IMG/VR virus record: IMGVR_UViG_3300042474_001633
Coordinates: 32,001-96,000 of that record
DNA length: 64,000 nucleotides
Reading direction: 5' to 3' (one strand)
Source of the DNA: a virus
Under the pieces are notes generated by a model. That model worked only from the letters and a program-made list of their open reading frames with translations. It was not told the DNA's origin and did no database searches. A program made the translations under genes and the position numbers. Below are positions 23,805 to 25,312 of the stretch, piece after piece. The stretch's first letter is position 1, and every line of letters starts with the position of its first letter.

Positions 23805-24155
23805 CTAAACCTGGGCGCGGACATTGGCGTTGAGGGTTCGCAAGGCATCAATACTCGTCCTGAGTGAAAGAAGTTTTTCTCGCTTTGCCCTAACTAGTGC
23901 TTCCGCGATTTCGTAATCCTCTTTCATTTGTTCCATCTTGTAATGAGACCATTGCTCTCTGTCGGTGATTGTTCTGTGCCCCTTGCCAGCAGCTCCTAGA
24001 TATTCTTTTGCCCATTCCGCCTTGTACCTGGCGTCTTTTTTTGCAGCGTCCACGGCGAGTATTTCAAAGTTTTCAGTTTCTTTTTCGAGCAGGTCGAGCA
24101 GTCTCATCATTTCTCGTTCAATGTCCACCTGGCTGATTGGTTGACTTCTATTCAT
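23805..24155 (-). CDS. Hypothetical coiled-coil protein
   Basis: 116 aa helical protein overlapping the RuvC-like gene. Confidence 0.65.
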   Translation of the reverse strand: MNRSQPISQVDIEREMMRLLDLLEKETENFEILAVDAAKKDARYKAEWAKEYLGAAGKGHRTITDREQWSHYKMEQMKEDYEIAEALVRAKREKLLSLRTSIDALRTLNANVRAQV

Positions 24156-24678
24156 TTTCTATCCCTTCGAGTGGGGACCAGTCTATCTTCTCTAGCGCCG
24201 AGAGAGAAATGTTTGACCACTTATATTTTGCATTTCCAATTTTTGCCAAAACCATTTCTTCAAGAACCCACGCATCGCACATATCATCAGCATGCCCCCC
24301 TTTCCAAACTATTCCCGTAATAGCTGATATTGCAGATATGACTTCTGACTTGCCAGCGTTCCCTTTGCCTGTGGCAAATTTTGCTCGACAAGTAGGAGGC
24401 ACGATTATGTATGGAATATCAAGATTTAGCAAGGCAACCCTGACAACACCGCCAAGCTCCCCAATTGAGTGAGCCTGAGAATTTCTTGATGCAAAAGAAT
24501 AACCCTCTATGGCTACCAATTGTATTTTGTTGGAAACCGCAATATTGCCAATTTCGCTGGCTATTTTCCTCAATCTTTCAGCTCCAGATAAATCAAAAGA
24601 AAGATAACCAGCTTCTCCAGCATGGCAATACCCAGTGGATGTAAGTGATAGGTCGAGACCTAGGATGTTCATGGGCAC
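24148..24678 (-). CDS. ruvC: RuvC-like Holliday junction resolvase
   Basis: ILGLDLSLTSTG, VAIEGY, FATGKGNAGK, DDMCDA catalytic motifs. Confidence 0.85.
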   Translation of the reverse strand: MPMNILGLDLSLTSTGYCHAGEAGYLSFDLSGAERLRKIASEIGNIAVSNKIQLVAIEGYSFASRNSQAHSIGELGGVVRVALLNLDIPYIIVPPTCRAKFATGKGNAGKSEVISAISAITGIVWKGGHADDMCDAWVLEEMVLAKIGNAKYKWSNISLSALEKIDWSPLEGIENE

Positions 24679-24694
24679 GCAAAACTCTACCCCA

Positions 24695-24728
24695 CAAACA
24701 AAGACCCGCCGGGTGTAATCCCGACGGG
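24695..24728 (-). terminator. Intrinsic terminator
   Basis: CCCGUCGGG-AUUACA-CCCGGCGGG stem with one U-G pair, followed by UCUUUGUUUG. Confidence 0.7.
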
Positions 24729-24823
24729 AATTAACACAGACAGACGTCCATGTCTACTTTGCGTAGTTATTCACCACTAGACCTTGGACCACCTGCCTTT
24801 CTTTTCTCAGAAACGGCTGTAAG
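24695..24823 (-). ncRNA. Putative small RNA B, complementary to the 16S rRNA 3' end
   Basis: -10 TACTCT at 24834-24829. AGAAAGGCAGGUGGUCCA at 24802-24785 pairs with 16S UGGAUCACCUCCUUUCU. Terminator hairpin at 24728-24705. Confidence 0.55.
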
Positions 24824-24881
24824 ACCTTAGAGTACCATTACAAAATTATTAGCTCAGGTAAAGAGATGTTGGCGCGCACAT

Positions 24882-24941
24882 AAAAAAAGAGACGCAAGAA
24901 CCGGGGGCTGCACGTTGCCCTGTGCCCCCGGCCCTCGCGCC
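24882..24941 (-). terminator. Long GC-rich hairpin plus U tract
   Basis: GGCGCGAGGGCCGGGGG pairs with CCCCCGGUUCUUGCGUC, then UCUUUUUUU. Confidence 0.8.
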
Positions 24942-24959
24942 TATAACGGTCCTAAGGAT
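24882..24959 (-). ncRNA. Putative small RNA A, antisense to 23S rRNA helix 69
   Basis: -10 TAGAAT at 24969-24964. 5' segment CCUUAGGACCGUUAUAG (24957-24941). A 17-bp stem closes only on the minus strand via G-U pairs, followed by a U7 tract. Confidence 0.65.
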
Positions 24960-25009: not shown

Positions 25010-25312
25010 TTAACGTTCCCAGCCGTGCTTGGCTAAACCTAAATCAAAAGCAAGCTGCGGATAGTTTCCAATTCGATTGTGACATGGCCTGCATACCGCA
25101 AGAAGATTTTCCTCATCGAGTATCGACCCACCCTGAGAGCGTCTAATTATTTCGTGAATGTCGCAACTTCTGTTACGAACATATGTCAACTTCTCGTCAT
25201 GTTCAGCAAATACAGGACACGCTTCGCAAAATGGTTTTTTTGACAAAAGTTTTTCTACGAGCGGGCGCCTCAGCAAATACTCTTCTTGTTTCTTTTTTGA
25301 ACGATATTTCAC
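25010..25312 (-). CDS. HNH endonuclease-like protein
   Basis: CEAC...DIHEIIRRSQGGS...NLLAVCRPCH. Confidence 0.8.
   Translation of the reverse strand: MKYRSKKKQEEYLLRRPLVEKLLSKKPFCEACPVFAEHDEKLTYVRNRSCDIHEIIRRSQGGSILDEENLLAVCRPCHNRIGNYPQLAFDLGLAKHGWER

Follow-up and report, generated by a model that had tools for sequence, protein, structure and literature searches.

A conserved small RNA gene in a phage genome with extended complementarity to the 3' tail of 16S rRNA

What occupies the 331-nt minus-strand gap between an HNH endonuclease gene on its 5' side and a RuvC-like resolvase gene on its 3' side in the genome of a large virus? The gap is surrounded by a gene block for terminase, Rad52-like, PD-(D/E)XK, HNH and RuvC proteins. 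It lies in a 64-kb window, by which we mean the whole stretch of DNA analyzed (bases 32001-96000 of a 160,282-bp IMG/VR viral contig; 47% G+C). An original prediction, made from the sequence letters, placed here the second of two tandem small RNAs, complementary to the 3' end of 16S rRNA and acting as a sponge for the 30S subunit. Comparative analysis of the locus indicates that the minus-strand region 24822-24697 is almost certainly the gene for a conserved non-coding RNA, with a predicted transcript of about 130 nt running from ~24822 to ~24697. The features of the locus are collected in Table 1.

Table 1. Features of the small RNA locus and its flanks (window coordinates).
Feature	Position	Strand	Remarks
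HNH endonuclease gene	25010..25312	-	Pfam HNH; upstream of the 16S-tail RNA (module B)
Module A small RNA	24882..24957	-	17-nt 23S antisense (24957-24941), then a long G+C hairpin to ~24882
Upstream promoter element TTTACC	24857..24862	-	22 nt before the -10 hexamer; putative function
Extended -10 box TGgTACTCT	24829..24837	-	Predicted transcript start ~24821-24823
P1 hairpin, GCCGUUUCU paired with AGAAAGGC	24795..24817	-	In MFE and centroid folds; hides core block 1
Core AGAAAGG-C-AGGUGGUCCA	24785..24802	-	Complements 16S tail U1528-U1544 (E. coli numbering extended)
Near-invariant UCUAG (few: UCGAG)	24777..24781	-	Between core and P2; T, C, A and G invariant in alignment A1
P2 hairpin GUGGU-GAAUA-ACUAC	24763..24777	-	Carries the putative micro-ORF; in all homologues
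Conserved GCAAAG (most relatives GGCAA)	24757..24762	-	After P2; in A1, G and A invariant, C nearly so
Variable region	24735..24756	-	Can pair onto core and linker: GGCAG/CUGUC, GUCC/GGAC, GUCUA/UAGAC (centroid fold)
Intrinsic terminator	24695..24728	-	9-bp stem, loop AUUACA, then UCUUUGUUUG
RuvC-like resolvase gene	24148..24678	-	Pfam RuvC; directly downstream of the small RNA; without SD

Both ends of the predicted transcript are marked by conserved signals. The TACTCT -10 box that had been proposed lies at 24834-24829, is preceded by TGg, and is conserved as an extended -10 box: TGnTAnnnT is aligned across most homologues in alignment A1, and TAnnnT is the -10 consensus of actinobacteria. 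Upstream of homologues TTTAC[CT]-N22-TAnnnT recurs, and this motif, with the TGn included, occurs once in the 160-kb genome versus 0.1 occurrences expected. At the 3' end, a terminator scan recovered the terminator that had been noticed after the micro-ORF, with a 9-bp stem (8 G-C) at 24728-24705 followed on the minus strand by the U-rich TCTTTGTTTG; compensatory changes affect six of its nine pairs (RNAalifold, 31 sequences). A conserved -10 box and a covarying terminator across homologues bear out the earlier suggestion of a separate small non-coding RNA gene.

We identified 58 distinct homologues of the small RNA in IMG/VR contigs, all of which keep the core. The sample combined RuvC-based loci with pattern scans: at least 577 RuvC relatives occur in IMG/VR, 80 loci were fetched, and a metagenome scan contributed 27 further DNA contigs (at least 1 kb). 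With at least these numbers of distinct copies and related RuvC loci, the family is widespread in freshwater viromes; so far it is confined to a lineage of large freshwater actinobacteriophages. By nhmmer, the small RNA was present in 86 of the first 126 loci and in 40 of the 80 RuvC-based loci, and in a first pattern scan (46 loci) it lay between HNH and RuvC wherever flanks were available. The 58 copies share a common plan in which TTTAC[CT]-N22-TAnnnT (usually with TGn), a variable stretch and the core are followed by a linker of 3-9 nt, UCUAG, P2, G(G)CAA, a variable hairpin and the terminator. Some loci were retrieved by patterns that fix one core block, a retrieval bias which the RuvC set mitigates and which appears limited, because scans leaving one block free retrieved nothing beyond GGUGGUC-bearing family members and unrelated coding matches. 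Loose-pattern matches in coding regions (L172, L186, L188, L218-L229) were inspected and discarded as chance.

No relevant match to the window region was found in Rfam 15 at E up to 10, the match to McaS being on the opposite strand over the terminator and scoring 19 bits versus a gathering score of 42, and six divergent homologous loci gave no Rfam match at E up to 0.1. ARAGORN detected no tRNA or tmRNA in the window, and the region had no blastn match among 50,697 phage records. Resemblances to a tmRNA-like tag, an SRP-like motif and a tRNA D-arm were dropped, as none had model support (Rfam, ARAGORN). The phage genome contains no second copy of the small RNA, and the exact core plus UCUAGU pattern had 0 matches in 185,579 GTDB species genomes, so that no prophage or host copy was found among them.

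A first alternative is that the region is coding, with the 16S-like stretch being a strong Shine-Dalgarno sequence (SD) for a seven-codon micro-ORF. The ORF described in the original prediction (GTG GTG AAT AAC TAC GCA AAG TAG) is present at 24777-24754, within the P2 region, but neither its start nor its frame is conserved, and a covarying hairpin stands in its place. P2 comprises 17 distinct stems with loops of 2-19 nt across all homologues, among them GUGGU/ACUAC, GUAGC/GCUAC, GUGA/UCAC, GCGGAG/CUCCGU and GUGGA/UCCAC; its third pair is GC in 39, AU in 16 and GU in 2, and its fifth AU in 10, CG in 14 and UA in 6. RNAalifold on the MAFFT alignment recovered the terminator only; since P2 is misaligned there, its stems were counted by scripted anchoring instead. 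Family-2 copies do carry an ATG 7 nt past AGG, but the micro-ORF is refuted because many homologues lack a start codon (UAGUAGC) and the differences in loop length, being non-multiples of three, shift the frame. The peptides likewise have no common sequence beyond MSSG, and that within one clade. A peptide conserved at the expense of the pairing had been named as the result that would speak against a role on the ribosome; the opposite was found, with the pairing kept and the peptide not. We consider the probability of a micro-ORF SD, or of a mere chance match, to be practically negligible. As in trans-acting small RNAs, the transcript would be short, terminated and without an ORF.

Under a second alternative, the element would act in cis on the RuvC operon, as its leader or attenuator, with the SD-like stretch as a standby or sensing site for ribosomes. 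In most loci 125-151 nt separate the core from the RuvC start, and the terminator is located between the two. Such a role is nonetheless very unlikely, since the element is not always contiguous and co-oriented with RuvC. At one locus (L105) an opposite-strand gene of ~255 aa sits between the 16S-tail RNA (module B) and the neighboring small RNA (module A) and separates B from RuvC, and in several clades module A is located between B and RuvC, in family-2 loci together with a hairpin of its own. The core is also set apart from the start codon by three hairpins and over 50 unpaired nt. RuvC further has a TAnnnT of its own: TAGAGT at 24689-24684 precedes the gene in the window, and in related loci (including L002-L020) TAnnnT stands 6-8 nt before ATG or GTG with no SD, so that the RuvC mRNA looks leaderless.

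Any ribosomal target would be that of the host. The phage genome carries two WhiB-like genes, at 142570-142761 and 111570-111767 (outside the window), which place its host among the actinobacteria; among 14 control genomes, WhiB was present in the actinobacterium only. Distant relatives of the RuvC protein include phages of Gordonia, Mycobacterium and Streptomyces, and the closest isolate phages by RuvC protein are less than 34% identical. A WhiB match in an Ilumatobacteraceae MAG provided the entry point into 16S sampling of the Actinomycetota. The presumed host 16S tail was taken from this phylum: the 16S gene ends in UGGAUCACCUCCUUUCU in 30 of 30 Actinomycetota sampled, a set that excluded four genomes flagged as unpublished. 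Bacteroidota are hosts with a different 16S tail, GGAACACC. Among other translation-related genes, five tRNA genes lie at 114.5-152.3 kb of the phage genome, none of them in the window (ARAGORN); an S21 gene and an RNase III gene were both looked for in the phage genome and neither was found.

The minus-strand 18-nt string at 24802-24785 reads AGAAAGGCAGGUGGUCCA, exactly as first reported, and forms 17 pairs, including one G-U, with the last 17 nt of 16S rRNA (GCGGCTGGATCACCTCCTTTCT), leaving one bulged C. RNAduplex against the GCGGCUGGAUCACCUCCUUUCU tail of the 30 Actinomycetota confirmed the 17 pairs at -25.6 kcal/mol, compared to -30.0 kcal/mol for a perfect complement and -8.7 kcal/mol for GGAGG. 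When the whole 160,282-bp genome was scanned on both strands against the 16S tail, the core site ranked first at -26.7 kcal/mol and the runner-up reached -20.4 kcal/mol (mean -5.3, sd 2.6); sites at -20.4 kcal/mol and below in this ranking are ordinary SDs before genes, such as GAGGUGGUCAAUG. Regions upstream of RuvC in related phages without the element score -10 to -19 against the same tail, and duplex energies of the core across 31 variants range from -21.5 to -27.2 kcal/mol. A chance match is excluded because the core is conserved and ranks first genome-wide. The only other near-matches to the core (14 of 16 core bases), at G000:C1 126361 and 129711 outside the window, have the same sense as the core and were rejected as ordinary terminator hairpins of the form GGGGCG(C/U)ACUUGC(U/C)-GAAA-GGCAGGUGCGCCCC. 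An attP or homing-site reading was also set aside, as the 16S match has an indel and sits inside the promoter-terminator unit.

The variation of the core is informative with respect to its partner. For each of 31 distinct cores we took the best duplex and recorded which base lies opposite every 16S position. Opposite C, A or G of the tail (1530, 1531, 1533-1536, 1538, 1539 and 1543) the Watson-Crick partner is present in all 31, whereas the six positions facing U are all polymorphic and contain A or G only, with the sole exception of two variants that have no partner for U1537. The partners are G 30 and A 1 at U1532; A 25, G 4 and none 2 at U1537; A 28 and G 3 at U1540; A 29 and G 2 at both U1541 and U1542; and A 25 and G 6 at U1544. 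Variable sites therefore make up 6 of 6 positions facing U versus 0 of 9 others (p ~2e-4; hand calculation, 1/C(15,6)), and a change from G to A was seen only at the G facing U1532. The conserved stretch ends with the C opposite G1530, the base that immediately follows helix 45, and any of C, A, U or G occupies the position beyond it. An interruption of 1-3 nt is always there (C, U, CA, AC, AU, CGA, CAA or UCA), and it moves between variants, as in GG^C^AGG, GGA^C^GG, GG^CG^AGG and GGGAG^A^GUGG, with both flanks staying complementary to the tail. It breaks GGAGG in all variants except L034-L036, where it is an A placed two pairs further on and GGGAG remains. This pattern fits pairing with a fixed external partner, and the extended complementarity at the heart of the original prediction proves to be a conserved, selected feature across homologues. 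A conserved seed with pairing-preserving variation (31 variants; shuffled-core comparison) is likewise a trait of trans-acting small RNAs.

Variation restricted to A and G could also come from transition bias or from a purine-reading protein. This leads to a third alternative, in which a structured non-coding RNA has a core read by a protein or paired with another RNA, and likeness to an SD reflects descent or mimicry with no 16S pairing. The core is purine-rich, a protein could tolerate the exchange of one purine for another, and the predicted folds partly bury the core; the conserved UCUAG and GGCAA are in addition unexplained by the 16S model. This alternative, which we regard as unlikely yet the most credible of those considered here, leaves unexplained why positions sort into invariant and variable ones by the 16S base they face, why the bulge moves while both flanks hold one register, and why conservation ends at G1530. 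Pairing with another RNA finds no candidate in the phage genome, in which no site is complementary to the core within three substitutions.

The folding predictions bear on both of these readings. Core block 1 of the window copy has an unpaired probability of 0.08, and core block 2 has a mean unpaired probability of 0.25 versus 0.40 for the whole RNA, so the core is predicted to be partly occluded by intramolecular pairing and not especially open. The P1 hairpin is not universal among homologues; occluders differ by clade (CCACCUG and CCACCAG in relatives), and no conserved intramolecular partner for GGUGGUC exists among clades. As the occluders change from clade to clade and the core stays constant, whatever constrains the core must lie outside the RNA. 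When the RNA was cofolded with helix 45 and the tail and the cost of its internal structure was deducted, the net energy was -11.4 +/- 3.1 kcal/mol (-15.6 kcal/mol for the window copy), against -5.0 kcal/mol in a control with the core shuffled. As the net energy is about that of a good SD, the RNA would be expected to act as a competitor of mRNAs and not to trap ribosomes for good.

On balance, we lean toward the reading that the RNA works by base-pairing with the 16S tail. The two-block core, AGAAAGG plus AGGUGGUC, would pair in trans with the single-stranded tail of the host 16S rRNA from G1530 to the 3' end, a stretch that ends GGAUCACCUCCUUUCU in 30 of 30 Actinomycetota and contains the anti-SD CCUCC. 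A 30S subunit bound by the RNA would likely be unable to dock SD-led mRNAs. The interruption of 1-3 nt opposite U1537 would prevent a canonical SD helix in most variants, and the variable internal anti-core may reduce the net affinity to about that of a strong SD. Expression, ribosome binding and the consequences of binding are what we infer from these comparisons of sequence. The breaking of GGAGG in most variants is odd for a pure ribosome trap. The original prediction went on to suggest that a sponge of this kind could favor leaderless phage mRNAs, and both the sponge role and this benefit are conceivable. A leaderless-type signature marks approximately 14% of phage gene starts (background 1.9%, at internal ATG/GTG/TTG codons), and ~32% have an SD (background 6.3%). 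Because of the latter, a strict anti-SD block would also hurt the phage, for which the balance would presumably be favorable at some genes and unfavorable at others.

The neighboring RNA provides a second link to the ribosome. The anti-helix-69 RNA reported beside the 16S-tail RNA is there: in four actinobacterial 23S genes, the 17-mer of module A is the exact reverse complement of CTATAACGGTCCTAAGG (23S C1914-G1930), and it is the longest exact match between phage and rRNA in the genome. Modules A and B each occur alone too, and in either order. That two adjacent, independent RNAs each match a universally conserved rRNA segment strengthens the reading of rRNA as the target. In diverged module A copies (L009 and L044), the best 23S register is shifted to 1921-1937, although the energies are no more than 2.6-2.7 sd better than shuffles.

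Several side observations concern this slot. Among module A variants, A to G facing U1923 keeps pairing, and U to C facing A1916 or A1919 breaks it. Other hairpin-terminated small elements occupy the same slot upstream of RuvC at L032 (~106 nt) and L060 (~74 nt); they contain 11-nt 23S antisense stretches (CCUUGUCGGGU, near helix 70-71, and AAGGUAACGGA) with energies no better than shuffles. At L164 (G048 23S gene), the actinobacterial match spans 4.1 kb versus the usual ~3.1 kb and contains no helix-69 17-mer even when up to three edits are allowed, which points to an insertion there or close by.

The 16S pairing could also be real and serve to protect: toxin nucleases of toxin-antitoxin or abortive infection systems that are specific for single strands would then be kept off the tail by the duplex. 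The mycobacterial toxin MazF-mt11 cuts 16S rRNA between C1533 and A1534 (C^ACCU), just before the anti-SD and in single strands only (PMC12274833). RelE1 cleaves the tail at this same position, C1533/A1534, and MazF-mt3 (MazF6) after U1537, and MazF toxins also cut 23S helix 70 (PMC12620021). The three toxins thereby target, in the same host phylum, the 15 nt of 16S rRNA to which the phage RNA would bind (PMC12274833, PMC12620021). Block 2 (GGUGGUC) is centered on C1533/A1534, a site that an ordinary SD never covers, so the RNA could shield against abortive-infection nucleases, and the usual bulge lies at U1537/C1538. The host would, however, have to carry such toxins; module A covers 1914-1930 and not the helix-70 site at 1939-1943, a protected ribosome would still be SD-blind, and the coincidence of bulge and cleavage site has no mechanistic rationale. 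We regard a protective function as rather improbable. The anti-SD-removing toxins and the phage RNA have a common expected outcome, the loss of SD-led initiation, but the toxins are proteins that cut irreversibly, whereas the phage RNA would mask reversibly and could equally antagonize them. If the RNA did act as a shield, it would be an RNA-based counter-defense directed at a host molecule and not at a defense protein. Broader still, and doubtful in our estimation, is a two-RNA phage system against host rRNA with one RNA per subunit, which would mask the 16S tail and 23S 1914-1937, either switching the cell away from SD-led translation or shielding toxin-cut sites.

Base-pairing with the 16S tail, which we favor, has partial parallels in known systems. 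Synthetic oligonucleotides complementary to the 16S 3' end inhibit initiation, and both these and SD:anti-SD pairing involve the same target strand and the same duplex type as the phage RNA. SDs of the phage's own genes, GAGGUGGUC-N-AUG among them, extend to the same 16S bases as the core. In contrast to an SD, which forms 4-9 pairs, the phage RNA would form 15-17, from the very 3' end to G1530 and always interrupted midway, and its core is carried on a terminated small RNA with no gene after it. Ribosome-associated non-coding RNAs are similar in that they are proposed to act on the ribosome itself and not on mRNA; those known are cellular, mostly tRNA or mRNA fragments in archaea and eukaryotes, and we know of none that is phage-encoded or whose defining feature is a long stretch of Watson-Crick pairs with the anti-SD tail. 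Phages retune translation by proteins, including kinases, nucleases such as RegB, and ribosomal protein homologues. Phage base-pairing small RNAs resemble the present one in their short transcript, seed, intrinsic terminator and phage origin (bioRxiv 10.1101/2024.10.31.621285), but those described pair with host or phage mRNAs, and here the best complement is rRNA. Our search of open papers and preprints found no description of a phage RNA pairing with rRNA, at either the anti-SD or helix 69. The phage RNA may be a base-pairing small RNA of a known type with rRNA as a new target. Binding to the anti-SD tail, if it occurs, would make it a natural and reversible off-switch for SD recognition and a small, convenient tool for comparing SD-led with leaderless translation in actinobacteria, and it may represent a new kind of counter-defense. 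The RNA is small enough for direct testing in vitro.

The ends of the RNA differ among subfamilies. Pairing of a 5' CUAG with the conserved UCUAG was considered and rejected, as the variants (read by eye) do not support it. In the subfamily of L002, L010, L014, L015, L033, L041 and L050, the predicted 5' end UCUAGCC complements the terminator loop GGCUAGA, and variants stay compatible (UCUAGC/GCUGGA, UCUGGC/GCUAGA). The window copy is without this pairing, with UUACAGCC and the loop AUUACA, and the predicted 5' ends of other subfamilies are GGUACC or GCGCGC.
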